A stretch of 64,000 bases of DNA from an uncultured Oscillospiraceae bacterium (GTDB lineage: Bacteria; Bacillota; Clostridia; Oscillospirales; SIG627): positions 15,356 through 79,355 of the forward strand of contig CAZLEX010000001.1 of assembly GCA_964558655.1 (NCBI GenBank). Direction: 5' to 3'. The translations under genes and the position numbers were made by a program. Under the pieces are notes generated by a model. The model had not been told where the DNA came from and ran no database searches. It saw only the letters and a program-made list of their open reading frames with translations. Positions 14,797 to 29,924 of this stretch are shown here, piece by piece (the stretch's first letter is position 1; each line of letters starts with the position of its first letter).

Positions 14797-17355
14797 ATGA
14801 AAAAATTACTTGTCTTTGACGCAAACAGTATTTTAAACCGAGCTTTTTACGGGGTTAAACCGCTTACAACAAAATCCGGACTTCATACGAATGCGATTTA
14901 CGGCTATATTAATATTATCACAAAACATATAGACGCAATAAACCCCGATTGTATAGCTGCCGCATTCGACTTAAAAGCCCCGACTTTCAGGCATAAAATT
15001 TATTCGGAATACAAAGCCGGAAGGCATCAAATGCCAGCGGAACTATCCGAACAGTTACCGTATATCAAAGATGTAACAACTGCTATGGGCATTAAAATTC
15101 TGAGTTCGGAAGGATATGAGGCAGATGACATACTCGGAACGCTTTCGAAAGAATTTTCAGATATAGGTCACACATATATTGTTACAGGGGACAGAGACAG
15201 TCTGCAATTAGTGGGAAAATCCACTACGGTAATCTTGGCTACGACAGGCAAAGACGAAGAATACACTCCTGAAAAAATCCGGGAAAAGTACCTCGTGGAA
15301 CCTAAGCAACTCATAGATGTTAAGGCTTTAATGGGAGACGCATCGGACAATATTAAAGGTGTTTCCGGAATAGGAGAAAAAACAGCAATCAAACTTATTT
15401 ATGAAAACGACAATCTAAACACCCTTTACAGCCGCATAGATACGGAAACTTTTTGCGGTACTCAATCCGTAATTTCAAAATTAAAAAACGATAGAGAAAG
15501 TGCATTTCTCAGCAGAACTCTCGCCGAAATATGTACAGCTGTTCCGTTAAACGAAAATGAAGATACTCTTAAAAGACAGCCTTTAAACACAAAAGAACTC
15601 TCCGAAATTTTCAAAAGACTCGAATTTACAAAACTTTTGGAAAAATTCGGATTAAACAAACCCTCAGCCGAAGACGATACGCTGCAAATGACATTCGAAA
15701 CCGCTGAAATAAACCCATCGGCTCCTACACTTGTAACCTGTGACGAATTTGTCGTAGGTGATATGATTTTCGCAGACTTTGATCCCGTTACAAAAACATT
15801 TTATAAAGAGGAAAACGGGAAAATACTAAAGACACTTTCATCTAAAGAACTTATCGAAAAAATGGGTAAAAAAAGAATCTGTCTATGGGATTCCAAAACT
15901 TTTTGGCACGAGGTTATAGACAAATGTGCAGAAGTTAATGAAGATGCGGTGTTTTTCGATGTTAAAATTGCGGCATATGTGGAAAATCCGGATACCAAAG
16001 GAGATTTTGGTCGTATTCTCATGCGAACTCTTTTTGAATCTTCCACTTCTGTACTGTCAAATCAAGCTTCTTATCGCTGCTTGTTCATCAGAAGACTTTA
16101 CGAAAAACTCAGCGAAGAAATTTCAAATATAAATTCCGAAGAATTATATTATTCAATAGAACTCCCAACAACAAGAATTTTGGCAAAAATGGAAAGTGTG
16201 GGGTTTTCTCTTGACAAGGAAAATCTTTCAAAATACGGCGAATCGCTTCTCGAAAAAATGAAAATTTGCGAAGAAGAAATTTATATGCTATGCGGAGAAA
16301 CATTTAATATCATCTCTCCGAAACAATTGGGGCACATACTTTTTGAAAAGCTCAATCTTCCTATAATCAAGAAGAAAAAAACAGGATTTTCGACCGATGC
16401 CGAAACTCTTGAAAAGCTCCGTTTTCATTCTCCGGTTATAGATTATATTCTCAATTACAGAAGACTTTCAAAATTATACGGAACATATGTTGAGGGACTT
16501 TTGAAAGTTGCAGATAACGACGGACGGGTACGCACCGAATTTAAGCAAACAGGAACGGTCACGGGAAGACTTTCATCAACGGAACCAAATCTTCAAAATA
16601 TCCCGGTACGAACCGAAGAAGGAAGTATTTTACGAAAATTTTTTATACCGGCTCCCGGTAATGTACTGATAGATGCTGATTATTCTCAAATTGAATTGCG
16701 TATTCTGGCTCATATGGCTCAAGATGATGTTATGATAGATGCGTTTAATACGGGAAAAGATATTCACACCATGACAGCTTCAAAAGTTTTTAAAATTCCG
16801 TATGAAAATGTAACCTCCTCTTTAAGAAATCAAGCAAAAGCGGTTAATTTCGGTATCGTTTACGGTATAGGTGATTTTTCGCTCTCGGAAGATTTAAAAA
16901 TAAGCATGTACGAAGCGAAAAATTATATCCGGGGTTATTTTGAAACATATAAAAAAGTTAAGGAATATCTCGACAAAACTGTCGAAAATGCCATATCCGA
17001 AGGATTTGTCGAAACACTCTTTTCAAGACGCAGATACATTCCCGAACTTTCAAGCTCCAATAAAAACTTACAGGCATTCGGAAAACGCGTTGCGATGAAT
17101 ACCCCTATTCAAGGAACAGCTGCAGATATTATCAAAAAGGCAATGATTGCCATTGATCGTCGCCTTGAAAGAGAAAAACTTAAGGCAAGACTGATTTTAC
17201 AGGTTCATGATGAGTTAATTTTGGAATCTCCCGAAGAAGAAAGTCTTTATGCTGCGCAAATTCTCAAAGAAGAAATGGAAAATGCGGCAAATTTATCTTT
17301 AAAATTACGGGCAGATGTCGGAATTGGAAATAATTGGTTAGGTGCAAAGAAATAG
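14797..17355 (+). CDS. polA: DNA polymerase I
   Basis: 5'-3' exonuclease (DANSILNRAFY, YEADD, GDASDNIKGV) and polymerase motifs (DADYSQIELR, AKAVNFGIVYG, QVHDEL). ATG 14797 follows AAAGGA. Confidence 0.98.
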   Translation: MKKLLVFDANSILNRAFYGVKPLTTKSGLHTNAIYGYINIITKHIDAINPDCIAAAFDLKAPTFRHKIYSEYKAGRHQMPAELSEQLPYIKDVTTAMGIKILSSEGYEADDILGTLSKEFSDIGHTYIVTGDRDSLQLVGKSTTVILATTGKDEEYTPEKIREKYLVEPKQLIDVKALMGDASDNIKGVSGIGEKTAIKLIYENDNLNTLYSRIDTETFCGTQSVISKLKNDRESAFLSRTLAEICTAVPLNENEDTLKRQPLNTKELSEIFKRLEFTKLLEKFGLNKPSAEDDTLQMTFETAEINPSAPTLVTCDEFVVGDMIFADFDPVTKTFYKEENGKILKTLSSKELIEKMGKKRICLWDSKTFWHEVIDKCAEVNEDAVFFDVKIAAYVENPDTKGDFGRILMRTLFESSTSVLSNQASYRCLFIRRLYEKLSEEISNINSEELYYSIELPTTRILAKMESVGFSLDKENLSKYGESLLEKMKICEEEIYMLCGETFNIISPKQLGHILFEKLNLPIIKKKKTGFSTDAETLEKLRFHSPVIDYILNYRRLSKLYGTYVEGLLKVADNDGRVRTEFKQTGTVTGRLSSTEPNLQNIPVRTEEGSILRKFFIPAPGNVLIDADYSQIELRILAHMAQDDVMIDAFNTGKDIHTMTASKVFKIPYENVTSSLRNQAKAVNFGIVYGIGDFSLSEDLKISMYEAKNYIRGYFETYKKVKEYLDKTVENAISEGFVETLFSRRRYIPELSSSNKNLQAFGKRVAMNTPIQGTAADIIKKAMIAIDRRLEREKLKARLILQVHDELILESPEEESLYAAQILKEEMENAANLSLKLRADVGIGNNWLGAKK

Positions 17356-17363
17356 GAGGCATT

Positions 17364-17666
17364 ATGAATACCGATATTTATACTCTTGAAGAAATTAAAG
17401 AAAAACTCTTCCCGATTTTTAAACACTATCATGTTAAAAAAGCTTTTGTTTTCGGATCATATTCAAAAAATTGTGCAGTCAAAGAAAGCGATGTTGATAT
17501 TTTTCTTGATAGCGGCTTACATGGTTTGGCTTTTGTGGAATTAATCGAAGATATAAGGAACGCACTCGATAAAACTGTAGATGTAATAGACAAACGCCAA
17601 GTCGATGAAAATTCAATTATAAAATCCGAAATACTTAAATACGGAGAACTCATATATGAGGAATAA
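17364..17666 (+). CDS. Minimal nucleotidyltransferase (MNT) antitoxin, MntA-like
   Basis: Exact GSX10DXD motif (GSYSKNCAVKESDVD); GGAGG RBS overlaps the polA stop. Confidence 0.88.
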   Translation: MNTDIYTLEEIKEKLFPIFKHYHVKKAFVFGSYSKNCAVKESDVDIFLDSGLHGLAFVELIEDIRNALDKTVDVIDKRQVDENSIIKSEILKYGELIYEE

Positions 17667-17988
17667 AGCAATCGTGGCAAAAATGAGATATTTTTTAAAA
17701 AAGATTTTAATTTATACCTCCAAAATGAATTATGATACATTCAGAAGCAATTCGATGCTTGTAGAAGCATGTGTTTTCAGTCTCAGCCAAATAGGAGAAT
17801 TGGCACATAAAGTGAGCCGTGATTACCAAGAAAAAAATCCTGATATACCCTGGAAAAAACTGTACGGCCTCAGAAATCAAATAGTACATGAATATGAAGG
17901 CGTAAATCTTATAATAGTTTGGGATATAATATCAGAGGATTTACCGCAATTGTACGATAGACTCAATCTTTTAATGGAATCAAAATAA
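17656..17988 (+). CDS. HEPN/DUF86 ribonuclease toxin, HepT-like
   Basis: RX4HXY motif (RNQIVHEY), DIPWKKL, IVWDII; overlaps the MNT gene. Confidence 0.88.
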   Translation: MRNKAIVAKMRYFLKKILIYTSKMNYDTFRSNSMLVEACVFSLSQIGELAHKVSRDYQEKNPDIPWKKLYGLRNQIVHEYEGVNLIIVWDIISEDLPQLYDRLNLLMESK

Positions 17989-17999
17989 CACAACGGGTA

Positions 18000-18015
18000 T
18001 GTTTCATGTGAAACA
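18000..18015. promoter_or_regulatory. parS site 1 (TGTTTCATGTGAAACA) inside a 52-bp palindrome
   Basis: 15/16 match to TGTTTCACGTGAAACA; centre of 25-bp perfect arms 17982-18006 / 18009-18033. Confidence 0.88.
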
Positions 18016-18075
18016 TACCCGTTGTGTTATTTTTATTAAAATCGGGGTATACTACAATCAAGAAAGGGTGGTATC

Positions 18076-18708
18076 ATGAACGAGGAAGAAAAAAAGGAGC
18101 ACATTTTTAATATAAATAAAATTGAAATATTGATGATCACAGGGCAAATAGAAGGGCATACATGTGCACCTGCTGAGGTAAAAGTAACAAAATACGAAGA
18201 TATTATACCGATAATTATAGCTATAGAAGAAAGTCGCGAAATTGAGGGCTTGTTAATACTTTTGAACACGGTAGGCGGAGATGTCGAAGCAGGGCTCGCA
18301 ATAGCCGAAGCAATTGCCGGCATAAAAAAACCGACTGTATCACTTGTTCTCGGAGGCGGACACAGCATCGGTATTCCGTTGGCAGTATCAGCAAAACATT
18401 CGTTTATAGTTCCATCAGCATCTATGATAATTCACCCCGTAAGAATAAACGGTGTTGTACTCGGAGTAGAACAGTCATTTAACTACCTTGCGAAAATGCA
18501 GGAAAGAATAAACAATTTTATAATCAAACACTCAAAGGCATCTTCCGCAACCCTTAACAATCTCCTGCTCAATACAGATGAAATGTCCTGTGATATCGGA
18601 AGCATACTTTACGGAAGCGAAGCGGTCGAAAAAGGCATAATAGATGAAGTCGGAAGCATTTCCGATGCACTTGAAAATCTTCATGCACAGATAAGAATTA
18701 AAGTGTAG
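18076..18708 (+). CDS. tepA: ClpP-family protease, TepA-like
   Basis: TKYEDIIP, LNTVGGDVEAGLAIAE, LGGGHSIGIPLAVS, IIHPVR. Confidence 0.85.
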   Translation: MNEEEKKEHIFNINKIEILMITGQIEGHTCAPAEVKVTKYEDIIPIIIAIEESREIEGLLILLNTVGGDVEAGLAIAEAIAGIKKPTVSLVLGGGHSIGIPLAVSAKHSFIVPSASMIIHPVRINGVVLGVEQSFNYLAKMQERINNFIIKHSKASSATLNNLLLNTDEMSCDIGSILYGSEAVEKGIIDEVGSISDALENLHAQIRIKV

Positions 18709-18724
18709 GTAATTTAATGCAATA

Positions 18725-18740
18725 TGTTTCATATGAAACA
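18725..18740. promoter_or_regulatory. parS site 2 (TGTTTCATATGAAACA) inside a 38-bp perfect palindrome
   Basis: 14/16 match to consensus; palindrome 18714-18751 just after the tepA stop. Confidence 0.8.
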
Positions 18741-18851
18741 TATTGCATTAATTTTACTGTTTTTTAATTATTTTATTTTTCGGCTGCAATTGACAAGTTT
18801 TTCTAATTAAAGCTTATAAAATAGTCACATTAAAAAGCAAAGGAGAAAATC

Positions 18852-19592
18852 ATGAAATATTCGGAAATAGACAGCAATATGTTGTTTATCGCGTCTGAGC
18901 ACAAAAAAGAGTACTGTAAAAGCAGAGAAATCACATCTCTCGCAAGAAGTATAGGGAAGGTCGGACTTTTAATTCCGATTACAGTGAAGCCATTATTAGG
19001 CGGAGGCGGTTACGAAATTATATCGGGAAATAAAAGATTTTGTGCCTGTAAACTTATCGGGATTAAAAAAATACCTTGTATGATAATTGAGAAAAATCAG
19101 GATCCCACTCTTATTTTCCTCACAATAAAGCGGTTCAAAGAAAGCGATCCGTTTGAATTGGCCGAAAATATTAAAAATGTATTGGTTAAAGGTGGTATTT
19201 CAGCAGAGAAATTAGCCTATACACTCGGAATGGAAACTTCGGAATTGATTGAATTTCTTACACCAGCTTATATGAGTGGGATTGAACGGGAAATTTCAAA
19301 AAGAAATCTTATAAATTCGGAAAAGATAAGAAAAATTTCGTCCCTGCCCGATAAAGAATCAAGGCTGTCCGCTCTGACGGCAAACACTTCTCATTTGTTA
19401 AAAAACAAAGCTCCGGAAAACAAACACGCACGGAGAATTATATCTTTAAAAAACATAGGTTTTTTCGAAAACACTCTAAAAAGGTCTCTCAAAATTCTTG
19501 AAAACGCAGGTTTTCATACAGCTAAGGAAACCCGCGAACAAAATGGCAATGTAGAATACAGAATTAAAGTGTTCGGAGCAAACAAAATTTAA
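18852..19592 (+). CDS. Divergent ParB/Spo0J/Noc-family paralogue
   Basis: LARSIGKVGLLIPITV, YEIISGNKRFCA (GxxRxxA CTPase motif), HTH-like segment; lies before parA where noc usually sits. Confidence 0.7.
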   Translation: MKYSEIDSNMLFIASEHKKEYCKSREITSLARSIGKVGLLIPITVKPLLGGGGYEIISGNKRFCACKLIGIKKIPCMIIEKNQDPTLIFLTIKRFKESDPFELAENIKNVLVKGGISAEKLAYTLGMETSELIEFLTPAYMSGIEREISKRNLINSEKIRKISSLPDKESRLSALTANTSHLLKNKAPENKHARRIISLKNIGFFENTLKRSLKILENAGFHTAKETREQNGNVEYRIKVFGANKI

Positions 19593-19601
19593 AAAACCGT
19601 A

Positions 19602-19617
19602 TGTTTCACATGAAACA
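19602..19617. promoter_or_regulatory. parS site 3 (TGTTTCACATGAAACA)
   Basis: 15/16 match; 10 nt after the ParB-like gene, about 65 nt upstream of the parA -35. Confidence 0.88.
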
Positions 19618-19828: not shown

Positions 19829-20593
19829 ATGGGAAGAATAATCGCTTTTGCAAACCAAAAAGGAGGAGTGGGAAAAACTACTTCTGCTGTAAATATAGCC
19901 GCCGACATCGGACATCTCGGATACTCTACGCTTATAATAGATTGTGATCCCCAGGGGAATGCATCAAGTGCGGTGGGTGCGGCAACAGGAAAGGCCGATA
20001 CATTTGACATATTGGTAAACGGCATCGATCCGACATGTGCTGTTCAAAAAACAAAGTTTAAAAATTTATCTGTGATTCCGTCGGATATGAATTTAGCCGC
20101 AGCCGATATTGAACTTTCGGGAAGAGATAAAAGAGAAATAATTTTTCGCGAAAAATTTTCGTTAATTCGTGACAAATTTGACTACATATTTCTTGACTGT
20201 CCTCCATCTCTAAGTTTAATTACCATAAACGCTTTATCGGCATCGGACGCAGTTATAGTTCCTATGCAATGCGAATATTTTGCCTTGGAAGGACTTTCTC
20301 AGCTGATTTTTTCTTTCAAGCAAATAAAGCGTTTATATAACCCGAATCTTGAGCTTCTCGGAATTATCTTGACGATGTTTGACGGGCGTCTTAATCTGTC
20401 TCTTCAAGTGATGGAAGAAATAAAAAAACATTTCCCAAACAAAACATTTTCTCACTCAATTCCGAGAGCGGTAAGACTTTCAGAATCTCCGAGCCATTCA
20501 AAACCGATACTTTATTATGATAAATATTCTAAAGGAGCTTTGGCGTATATGGAAGTATCAAAAGAGATACTGACAAGGCTCGAAAAAAAATAA
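19829..20593 (+). CDS. parA: Chromosome partitioning ATPase ParA/Soj
   Basis: Deviant Walker A KGGVGKTT, DCDPQGNAS, DCPPSL, PMQCEYFALEG. Confidence 0.97.
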   Translation: MGRIIAFANQKGGVGKTTSAVNIAADIGHLGYSTLIIDCDPQGNASSAVGAATGKADTFDILVNGIDPTCAVQKTKFKNLSVIPSDMNLAAADIELSGRDKREIIFREKFSLIRDKFDYIFLDCPPSLSLITINALSASDAVIVPMQCEYFALEGLSQLIFSFKQIKRLYNPNLELLGIILTMFDGRLNLSLQVMEEIKKHFPNKTFSHSIPRAVRLSESPSHSKPILYYDKYSKGALAYMEVSKEILTRLEKK

Positions 20594-20646: not shown

Positions 20647-21528
20647 ATGAAAAAAAACAGTTTGGGAAGAGGGCTTGACATTCTATTTTCAGATGAAGGA
20701 TTTGAGGAATCGGCTGAAAAAGTCGAAGAAATAGAAACGGCACTTGTATATCCCGATAACAATCAGCACAGAAAAATTTTCAACTCCGAAACTCTCGAAG
20801 AACTTGCAGAATCAATTAAACTTCACGGTATAATACAGCCACTGACAGTTCGGAAAACAGAAAAAGGATACAAAATTATTGCAGGAGAACGGCGTTACCG
20901 AGCCGCTATACTTGCAAATCTCGAAAAAATCCCCGTAATCGTAAAGGATATAGATGACAAAGAAGCAGCAGAAATCGCACTTATTGAAAATCTCCAAAGA
21001 GAAGATCTTAACCCCATAGATGAAGCAAGAGGATACGAAACGCTCATAAATACATTCAATATAACTCAGGAAGAAGCAGCTTACAGGGTAGGAAAATCAC
21101 GCTCTGCCGTTACAAATTCTTTACGGCTTCTGAAACTTACACCGCTGTGTATTGACGCTATTTCAAGCGGAAAAATAACTGCCGGGCATGCGCGTGCGAT
21201 TCTATCATTGAAATCACAAACAGATATGGACACTTTGCTTAACGAGATACTCAATTCGTCCATGAGTGTAAGAGATGCGGAAAATCGTGCAAAAAAAATC
21301 AATGACGGAACAATCTTCGAAAAAAAGCCGTTTTCAATAAAAGCCGAATACTTCTCTTCGATTGAAAAAAAGGCTTCGGAGTATCTTGCACGCAAAGTAA
21401 ATATCAAATCAAGAACAGACGGTAAAAAAGGCGGAAAACTCACTCTTTCGTGGTCGGACTCTAATGATCTCGAAGAACTTTTGGAACTTCTGTGCGGTCA
21501 AAATTTTGTTGATAATCTTGACAGATAA
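20647..21528 (+). CDS. parB: Chromosome partitioning protein ParB/Spo0J
   Basis: LGRGLD, IIAGERRYRA, ENLQREDLNPIDEA, VGKSRSAVTNSLRLL, GHARA. Confidence 0.97.
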   Translation: MKKNSLGRGLDILFSDEGFEESAEKVEEIETALVYPDNNQHRKIFNSETLEELAESIKLHGIIQPLTVRKTEKGYKIIAGERRYRAAILANLEKIPVIVKDIDDKEAAEIALIENLQREDLNPIDEARGYETLINTFNITQEEAAYRVGKSRSAVTNSLRLLKLTPLCIDAISSGKITAGHARAILSLKSQTDMDTLLNEILNSSMSVRDAENRAKKINDGTIFEKKPFSIKAEYFSSIEKKASEYLARKVNIKSRTDGKKGGKLTLSWSDSNDLEELLELLCGQNFVDNLDR

Positions 21529-28547: not shown

Positions 28548-29924
28548 ATGGATCCCAGAGAAGAAGTTTTATCTTGTGTTCAAAATTTAATACATGAAAG
28601 CGGCGATTTTACTCAAGCTACATATAATCTTTGGTTCAGAGATTTAAAAATAGAAAGCTTAACCAAAACGCAAGCTATATTGAGCGTTAATTCAGCTTAT
28701 AAAGCGGAAATAATTACCGACAGATATCTCTCTGTTTTAGAACATTATTTTGAAGAAGCACTTGGTTTTCATATTGATGTATGTATTGATATAATGCAAG
28801 AAGACGATAATTATTCCAAAAGTACAATTAAACTTATAAAAACCGAACTTTCGGATCACTCAAAAACAATTGAAGAAAAAGAAAACAGTCCGGTATTTTT
28901 AAAATATAATCCTGAATACACATTTGAAAATTTCATAGTAGGAAATACAAATAAATTGGCTCAAGCCGCTTGCCGTGCAATAGCTGAAAATCCGGATCAT
29001 CACTACAATCCGTTATTTATTTACGGGGCTTCAGGACTTGGAAAAACTCATCTTTTATATGCAATTACAAATCATATACTTATAAACAGACCTGATGCAA
29101 ATATCGTATATGCACGAGGAGAAGAATTTACAACAGAATTGATAAATTCTCTTTCTAAAAAAATTCCTATGCAGTATTTTCGTGACCGTTACAGAAAAGC
29201 AGATGTCTTATTAATAGACGATATTCAATTTATTGCCGGAAAACCTTCAACTCAAGAAGAATTTTTCCATACTTTCAATACTTTGTACGATGAAAAAAAG
29301 CAAATAATTTTGGCATCGGATCTCCCTCCGAAAGATATCAAAAATTTAGAGGAAAGACTCATAAGCCGTTTTTCTTGGGGACTTATAGTAGATGTTCAGC
29401 CTCCGGATTTGGAACTGCGTATAGCAATATTAAAATCAAAAGCAGAAATGATGAATATCAACATAGATGATAATGTTATAACTTATATTGCAGACAATAT
29501 AAAAAACAATATCAGACAGCTTGAAGGTGCCATAAAACGCTTAAAAGCAATGTCATATTTAAATGATACAAAAATAACAATGTCAGTTGCAAAAGAAGCT
29601 CTTAAAGATTTTCTTTCGGAAAATGCATCTACCGGAGTAACAATCGATCAAATATTTGAAATTGTTGCAAACCACTATAATATTTCGGTAGAAGATATGA
29701 GAGGCAAAAAACATCTTAAAGAAATTACAACGGGACGCCATGTTACAATCTATATTTTAAGAACAATAACAGAACTTTCTCTCAACGATATTGGAAAATA
29801 TTTTGATATGCATCATACATCGGTACTTTATGCCGTCAACAATATTACCGAAAATTTGAAAAATGATCCAAAACTTGAGTTTGAAGTTTCATCTATAATC
29901 AGAGAAATAAAAGAAGGGCATTAA
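28548..29924 (+). CDS. dnaA: Chromosomal replication initiator DnaA
   Basis: YTFENFIVG, YNPLFIYGASGLGKTHL, LLIDDIQF, IRQLEGA, HHTSVLYA. Confidence 0.98.
   Translation: MDPREEVLSCVQNLIHESGDFTQATYNLWFRDLKIESLTKTQAILSVNSAYKAEIITDRYLSVLEHYFEEALGFHIDVCIDIMQEDDNYSKSTIKLIKTELSDHSKTIEEKENSPVFLKYNPEYTFENFIVGNTNKLAQAACRAIAENPDHHYNPLFIYGASGLGKTHLLYAITNHILINRPDANIVYARGEEFTTELINSLSKKIPMQYFRDRYRKADVLLIDDIQFIAGKPSTQEEFFHTFNTLYDEKKQIILASDLPPKDIKNLEERLISRFSWGLIVDVQPPDLELRIAILKSKAEMMNINIDDNVITYIADNIKNNIRQLEGAIKRLKAMSYLNDTKITMSVAKEALKDFLSENASTGVTIDQIFEIVANHYNISVEDMRGKKHLKEITTGRHVTIYILRTITELSLNDIGKYFDMHHTSVLYAVNNITENLKNDPKLEFEVSSIIREIKEGH

Follow-up and report, generated by a model that had tools for sequence, protein, structure and literature searches.

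parS sites and the avoidance of short DNA words

The parS sites are among the most conserved cis-acting DNA signals of bacteria, and they are usually treated as invariant at their centre. Three such sites, each of which has lost its central CG, are described here from a stretch of 64,000 nucleotides (the window; contig CAZLEX010000001.1, positions 15,356 to 79,355 of the forward strand) of the genome of an uncultured Oscillospiraceae bacterium, referred to as G000; the other G-numbers denote surveyed genomes, and L-numbers denote loci. The canonical chromosomal site of the parS/ParB (Spo0J) system, TGTTNCACGTGAAACA, is found in Bacillus subtilis and most bacteria (PMC7022226). The sites of the window resemble it in their length of 16 bp, in their identical 7-bp arms, in their clustering beside parA-parB within ~10 kb of dnaA, and in being accompanied by a ParB with a ParB_N domain, a helix-turn-helix (HTH) and the GERRxRA motif. 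They differ from it in that all three copies have TpG/CpA, which is asymmetric, or TpA in place of the central CpG, and no CG-centred parS was found in the whole 1.68-Mb assembly (67 contigs, 98% complete). The same genome has lost almost all copies of ACGT, the word contained in the canonical CACGTG core. The explanation favoured here, with moderate confidence, is that selection acted against the word ACGT and that the parS centres changed in the ways that ParB permits.

Avoidance of restriction sites, in the form of short palindromes, has reportedly been found in prokaryotic genomes by Gelfand and Koonin in 1997 and by Rocha and co-workers in 2001. The depletion in G000 resembles such cases, as a 4-bp palindrome has become selectively rare in a single lineage, whatever the reading frame and independently of CpG content. 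No description of the consequence of restriction-site avoidance for an essential cis-element was found in the literature, nor was any work that contains the exact variant parS sequences or that connects parS with restriction or with the avoidance of ACGT. In Helicobacter pylori populations, ACGT is methylated to 5-methylcytosine (m5C) by M.Hpy99XI and has contracted to 53-295 motifs/Mb, mostly into ATGT/ACAT, and deamination was inferred as the driver (PMC10423294). The loss in G000 is likewise lineage-specific and very deep (89 ACGT/Mb), concerns the same tetramer and went mostly into ATGT/ACAT; however, the cognate m5C methylase is known in H. pylori, whereas no intact one was found in G000, where the purge also extends to the reading frame that makes C>T a nonsynonymous change. 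That work does not link the contraction to parS. An evolutionary change of a ParB-family binding site is also known from Noc, as the Noc-binding site (NBS) departs from parS at positions 1 and 6 of the half-site, which required changes in the protein (Jalal et al. 2020, PMC7383237). In G000, by contrast, central position 7 alone changes and the ParB recognition helix is unchanged.

Three parS sites with altered centres

The pattern TGTTTCANNTGAAACA has three matches in the window, at 18000, 18725 and 19602, where 100 shuffles gave an expectation of 0, in agreement with the preliminary description, which had reported three perfect-arm sites centred on TG, TA and CA. Site 1 (TGTTTCATGTGAAACA, 18000-18015) has the centre TG, site 2 (TGTTTCATATGAAACA, 18725-18740) is fully palindromic with the centre TA, and site 3 (TGTTTCACATGAAACA, 19602-19617) has the centre CA; none of them is assigned to a strand. 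All 14 arm bases (TGTTTCA and TGAAACA) are kept in the three sites, and the central CG of the CACGTG core is absent from each. Read on the opposite strand, TGTTTCATGTGAAACA becomes TGTTTCACATGAAACA, so that sites 1 and 3 are a single 16-mer in opposite orientations. Only two types of site are therefore present, one-hit (TG/CA) and two-hit (TA), and not the three distinct deamination products that had been proposed. Within two mismatches of TGTTTCACGTGAAACA, the whole assembly contains just these three sites.

The gene order is polA, MNT, HepT, site 1, a ClpP-like gene, site 2, a ParB_N-only paralogue, site 3, parA, parB and serS, and every site is placed directly 3' of a stop codon, that of HepT in the case of site 1 and that of the ClpP-like gene in the case of site 2. 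The gene parA (soj; 19829-20593, + strand, with AAA_31/CbiA/ParA matches) begins 0.2-1.8 kb downstream of the sites, and dnaA (28548-29924, + strand), followed by dnaN, recF, gyrB and gyrA, starts about 9 kb downstream. Given this position next to parAB and near the origin region, the sites are the three origin-proximal parS centromeres of the chromosome.

The altered state is a derived one, and it is specific to this species. The canonical TGTTTCACGTGAAACA is present in 13 of 15 genomes of the same genus, and none of the 13 congeners with sites has a non-CG centre; ACGT is at a normal level in all of them. The nearest congener, G006, has the same gene order, and its ParA, ParB and SerS are 81%, 73% and 91% identical to those of G000. 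It carries CG-centred sites at the same three intergenic positions, namely TGTTTCACGTGAAACA at L115:9251 (opposite site 1), CGTTTCACGTGAAACA at L115:9934 (site 2) and TGTTTCACGTGAAACA at L115:10814 (site 3), in a region with an ACGT observed/expected ratio (O/E) of 1.06. The local ACGT O/E of the congeners is 0.57-1.18, and their AACGTT/TTGCAA ratio is 0.18-0.71, compared with 0.016 in G000. As G006 has both CG sites and normal ACGT, the loss of ACGT and the changes of centre both postdate the split between G000 and G006.

Loss of ACGT from the genome

The depletion of ACGT, also reported in the preliminary description, is confirmed, as the window contains 4 copies and the whole genome 150, and the Markov O/E of 0.033 is the lowest of all tetramers. 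CpG is enriched genome-wide (O/E 1.41), so the loss of ACGT is not a general decay of CpG, and the word has the property expected of an avoided restriction site, that of a short palindrome far below its Markov expectation irrespective of composition. Of the 150 copies, 30 are located on three small contigs where the density of ACGT is normal, namely C61, C66 and the right half of C44 (C44:5500-8849). These stretches contain 2-5 ACGT per kb, as compared with 0.07 in the core genome, and they were either acquired horizontally in recent times or mis-binned.

The reading frames indicate how the word was lost. Codon-pair O/E values were obtained for 1,320 open reading frames (ORFs) of G000 and for 237 kb of pooled congener sequence (the hyphen marks the codon boundary). 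ACGT is depleted in all three frames, with values of 0.01 for ACG-T (congeners 0.77), 0.02 for nAC-GT (1.39) and 0.04 for nnA-CGT (0.71), as restriction avoidance would predict. In the last of these frames, C>T or G>A changes Arg to Cys or His, and those products are not raised (nnA-TGT 0.88 against 0.86 in congeners; nnA-CAT 0.97 against 0.84). The synonymous alternatives are raised instead: nnA-CGC reaches 1.42 (congeners 0.86), nnG-CGT 1.87 (1.26) and nnC-CGT 2.24 (1.65). The frame was thus purged via CGT>CGC, AGA and wobble A>G/C changes, and CGT is still the second commonest Arg codon. This synonymous purge without Cys or His products argues for selection against the word itself, by any silent route. 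Where they are silent, transitions dominate the loss.

Other short words are also scarce. CTAG has 32 copies in G000 (O/E 0.05) and is near zero throughout the genus, GGCC is low across the whole genus (0-0.2), and GCGC is low in G000 alone (0.13). GGATG/CATCC and GACCC/GGGTC stand at 0.38 and 0.32 in G000, and AGGT/ACCT are at half of the congener level.

The parS centre across the order

A survey of 401 genomes of the same order (178 genera), in which sites with perfect arms were counted, showed CG centres in 241 genomes and TG, CA or TA centres in 58, the latter distributed over 41 of the 178 genera. Any centre containing a transversion was found in 7 genomes, which is not above the reversed-pattern control. 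The TA centre is rare and restricted to G000, G086, G125, G220 and G390. As TG, CA and TA are the sole variants whether or not a genome has been purged of ACGT, the centres are not diagnostic of cytosine deamination, contrary to the original proposal.

In order to define the purged genomes, 27 with a low AACGTT proxy were re-measured by their true Markov ACGT O/E, and 13 of them proved to be truly purged (O/E <=0.13). The AACGTT/TTGCAA ratio was discarded as a measure of ACGT depletion since it works one way only: all purges are low, yet in 8 of the 27 genomes with a low ratio the depletion concerns AACGTT specifically, with true ACGT O/E of 0.60-0.87 (G094, G269, G314, G184, G154, G182, G070 and G226). 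The first seven of these have ratios of 0.03-0.09, and their AACGTT-specific depletion suggests avoidance of a six-base system specific for AACGTT.

Transition-centred parS sites are present in 8 of the 13 purged genomes and in 50 of the 388 others (odds ratio, OR, 10.8; p=9e-5), a difference that persists without G000 (7/12 against 50/388; OR 9.5; p=4e-4) and when genera are counted (8/11 against 33/167; OR 10.8; p=4e-4), although the test is corrected for phylogeny only crudely, which tells against the explanation favoured here. The correlation of the centre with ACGT O/E, which the preliminary description had called for, is thereby supported. Independent contrasts within genera point in the same direction, as G324 (O/E 0.06) has CA and TG centres against the CG of its congeners, and G112 (O/E 0.03) has CG and TG centres, in contrast to G022. 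In a separate sample of ParB loci, L080 (O/E 0.12) has two TG sites, and L059 (O/E 0.03) has one CG and one TG site. L061, with 0 ACGT against 25 expected, has TGTTTCTCGTGAAACA at both sites, and there ACGT was lost by an A>T transversion (A7>T). Altogether, the purged genomes contain 19 sites free of ACGT and 17 that are still CG. A causal link between the change of centre and the purge, all mechanisms taken together, is very probable. That the avoidance of restriction words repeatedly overwrites the centromere core is a broader claim, which the data favour by little: about half of the parS sites in ACGT-purged gut Clostridia would have lost CACGTG, through a pyrimidine-purine (YpR) centre or through A7>T, and the other half would survive as virtually the last local ACGT.

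ParB and the observed centres

The ParB of G000 (20647-21528, + strand) is intact, with ParB_N and HTH_ParB above the Pfam cut-off, a weak ParB_C match below it and the motif GERRYRA. Its closest solved structures are 1vz0, 6sdk, 4umk and 6t1f. It has a canonical recognition helix (VGKSRSAVTNSLRLL), and most CG-type congeners carry the identical helix VGKSRSAVTNSLRLLKL; the segments GHARAI and SVRDAE are common to G006, which uses CG sites. Since the helix is unchanged and these segments are common to both species, tolerance of the altered sites by ParB is favoured over adaptation to them. The preliminary description had left both open, and tolerance is plausible, adaptation being the less favoured of the two. 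Several lineage-specific substitutions (K132T, D136T, P165T and R173S) flank the helix-turn-helix, and they may contribute to the use of the altered sites.

The simplest reading of the restriction to TG, CA and TA is that ParB, or the shape of the DNA, would require a YpR step at the dyad. Under this requirement, and if ACGT is to be lost with the arms kept, these three centres would be the sole options.

Proposed selection against ACGT and its alternatives

The proposed model is as follows. After the split from its nearest sequenced congener, the species eliminated ~97% of its genomic ACGT, and in the same period each parS lost the ACGT of its CACGTG core as the central CpG underwent transitions. 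Selection on ACGT itself would have driven the purge, the most likely cause being that the species avoided an ACGT-specific restriction activity which the assembly no longer reveals, or does not yet reveal. As the ParB of this order appears to accept a YpR centre alone, TG/CA or TA would have been the three ways to lose the word with all 14 arm bases intact, and ParB, needing no change itself, would presumably continue to bind the altered sites.

Several observations weigh against this model. No ACGT-specific restriction-modification (R-M) system was found in the assembly, which at 98% completeness does not prove its absence, and the lack of an assigned agent behind the purge is the main weakness of an explanation by restriction. 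Furthermore, the depletion of ACGT (0.03) is about 10 times deeper than that of the words of resident R-M systems (0.37-0.71), which also sets G000 apart from described cases of restriction-site avoidance. ATGT/ACAT have risen 1.87x relative to congeners, the top rise of the 12 one-step neighbours of ACGT, which is also what deamination predicts. Six truly purged genomes retain CG centres (L051, L044, L089, G090, G396 and G408), and in several genomes with normal ACGT all perfect-arm sites are TG-centred, with ACGT O/E of 1.06 in G188, 0.98 in G291, 0.94 in G380 (six sites), 0.90 in G319 (five sites) and 0.89 in G348, the value for G033 being 0.70. Therefore, the purge is neither necessary nor sufficient for the change of centre. 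The preliminary description had regarded such centres in genomes without depletion as evidence against its proposal; they do exist, as all-TG sets at ACGT O/E of 0.85-1.06, at a far lower frequency than in purged genomes.

In four of the purged genomes with CG centres (L051, L044, L089 and G396), parS is the sole ACGT left in 11-20 kb, and two of the 3 ACGT in G090 and three of the 6 in G408 are CG sites. The persistence of CG parS as nearly the last ACGT implies strong purifying selection on these sites, or their protection. Among the genomes with normal ACGT, G319 (L145), G380 (L146), G188 (L144), G291 (L147) and G348 (L148) have 2-6 sites each, all TG/CA-centred, and other members of the same genus (G053, G120 and G230) have CG. 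In such species, the asymmetric site may become fixed through a directional force besides ACGT avoidance, possibly gene conversion or co-evolution of ParB.

The alternative that survives best is that the central cytosines became hypermutable through the action of an ACGT-specific m5C methyltransferase. Their spontaneous deamination, as C>T on one strand or the other, would then account for the genome-wide loss and for the change of parS alike, and selection on the word would have been slight or absent. The contraction of ACGT in H. pylori, an m5C target there with losses skewed to ATGT/ACAT and down to 53 motifs/Mb, is a precedent for the density in G000, and the rise of ATGT/ACAT is enough to absorb the lost ACGT. 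This excess of C>T products is the signature expected of m5C deamination, but selection on silent transitions predicts it equally. It also fits deamination that G000 has just a Vsr fragment (C44:814-1008) beside remnants of C5-methyltransferases (C5-MTases), and that GCGC, another classic m5C target, is depleted specifically in this genome. However, deamination should leave the motif in place where C>T is nonsynonymous, and no such persistence was seen in the nnA-CGT frame, which retains only 2-3 times as much as the other frames and was purged about as deeply, through wobble A>G/C changes and CGT>CGC. Nor would this process naturally give a TA centre, because the site ceases to be a target of the methylase after one C>T, and the second cytosine is then unmethylated. 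L061 lost its parS ACGT by A>T, transition-only centres are universal in the order, genomes with normal ACGT included, and there is no intact C5-MTase, the family of the truncated one being tied to other words. Deamination as the driver is thus rather unlikely.

Less probable still, and by some distance, is a coincidence, in which TG, CA and TA would be neutral variants tolerated by ParB that drift to fixation regardless of ACGT. Most carriers of transition centres (50/58) are indeed not purged, six purged genomes keep CG, and fully converted sets occur at normal ACGT in G188, G291, G348, G327 and in G319 and G380 (5-6 sites each in the last two). Against chance stands the roughly ten-fold enrichment in truly purged genomes, by genome and by genus alike. 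In the genus of G000, moreover, the single purged species has 3 of 3 sites converted, as against none of the 13 congeners with sites, and the pattern is repeated in independent genera (G324, G112, G212, G386 and the genomes of L059 and L080). A shift of the ParB of this lineage towards T at the centre, with the sites following and the purge a side issue, can be nearly dismissed: the all-TG sets of 5-6 sites in unpurged G319 and G380 suggest a directional force of that kind, and substitutions do flank the HTH in G000, but the recognition helix is that of CG-type congeners, other DNA-contacting segments are common to G006, and one wild-type half (TGTTTCAC) is kept in 2 of the 3 sites.

If selection against ACGT is the correct explanation, it shows that a near-universal DNA signal can be overwritten when a genome avoids a word of four letters, within the few ways that its binding protein allows. 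The central CpG of parS is a soft spot, where TG/CA or TA are possible and transversions essentially never occur in the 401 genomes, and this provides a testable rule for recognition by ParB or for the deformability of the DNA at the dyad. Defence-related compositional pressure would raise the odds of a change of centre about ten-fold, linking genome defence to the signals of chromosome segregation. The result would be a natural tug-of-war that maps the tolerance of ParB at the dyad centre, with parS protected, or individually selected, against a near-complete purge, and the purged genomes that keep CG, compared with those converted, are a natural experiment. In practical terms, parS finders that require CACGTG will miss the centromeres of ~1/7 of the species in the order.

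Restriction-modification genes of the genome

The preliminary description held that a methylation or restriction system had rewritten the centromere. The coincidence of the change of centre with a species-specific purge, and the association across the order, support a part of this; the system itself was not found in the assembly, and G000 has no intact ACGT or m5C methylase. Its R-M content comprises CfrBI-like, HpyAIV-like, type I and type IIG systems and a decayed m5C module, none of which can be assigned to ACGT. The two intact type II pairs were rejected as the agent, the CfrBI-like one corresponding to CCWWGG and the HpyAIV-like one to GANTC, and these prototype words are mildly avoided in G000 (0.37 and 0.71).

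Matches to the C5-MTase family PF00145 are limited to an N-truncated ORF on C44 (C44:2169-3017) and a 74-residue fragment on C3. The former lacks motif I in every frame, and its intact homologues have 311-319 residues. It belongs to a decayed defence or mobile islet (C44:1-5500) that also contains a serine recombinase fragment, the Vsr fragment, an HNH_2 nuclease resembling modification-dependent enzymes (C44:984-1784) and a reverse-transcriptase-like gene of 516 residues (C44:3007-4557). Full-length homologues of the truncated C5-MTase (46-54%) occur in six converted purged genomes, G000 counted, and in none of nine unconverted ones. It was nevertheless rejected as the ACGT methylase, as its homologues adjoin nucleases of the NgoFVII, Bsp6I and LlaJI types (GCSGC, GCNGC and GACGC) and one of them is found in a congener that is not purged; the family is probably GCNGC-like in specificity and not ACGT-specific.

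Neighbouring genes and palindromes

In the window, and also in L112, L117, L120, L123, L044 and L089, the parS sites lie at the apex of long perfect palindromes 3' of stop codons, with T-runs after them, and so resemble intrinsic terminators. Site 1 is at the apex of a 44-bp palindrome (17986-18029, no strand assigned) with a 20-bp stem, 8 G-C pairs and a T-run after it on both strands, and a 38-bp palindrome with a 17-bp stem surrounds site 2 (18714-18751, + strand), followed by TTTT. Extended palindromic flanks of parS recur in relatives.

The gene between sites 1 and 2 (18076-18708, + strand) encodes a ClpP-fold, TepA-like protein (PF00574, 5e-23), 81% identical in G006. Between sites 2 and 3, the ParB_N-only paralogue (18852-19592, + strand; Noc/Spo0J-like; PF02195, 1e-10) gave no match in a search for the HTH_ParB domain. 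It has fast-evolving orthologues in all congeners, and its position is conserved across the genus (orthologues in L111-L122), with an identity of 28-44% against 53-73% for ParB. Upstream of site 1, an MNT/HepT (nucleotidyltransferase/RNase) toxin-antitoxin pair (17334-17988) lies between polA and the site and overlaps the end of polA.

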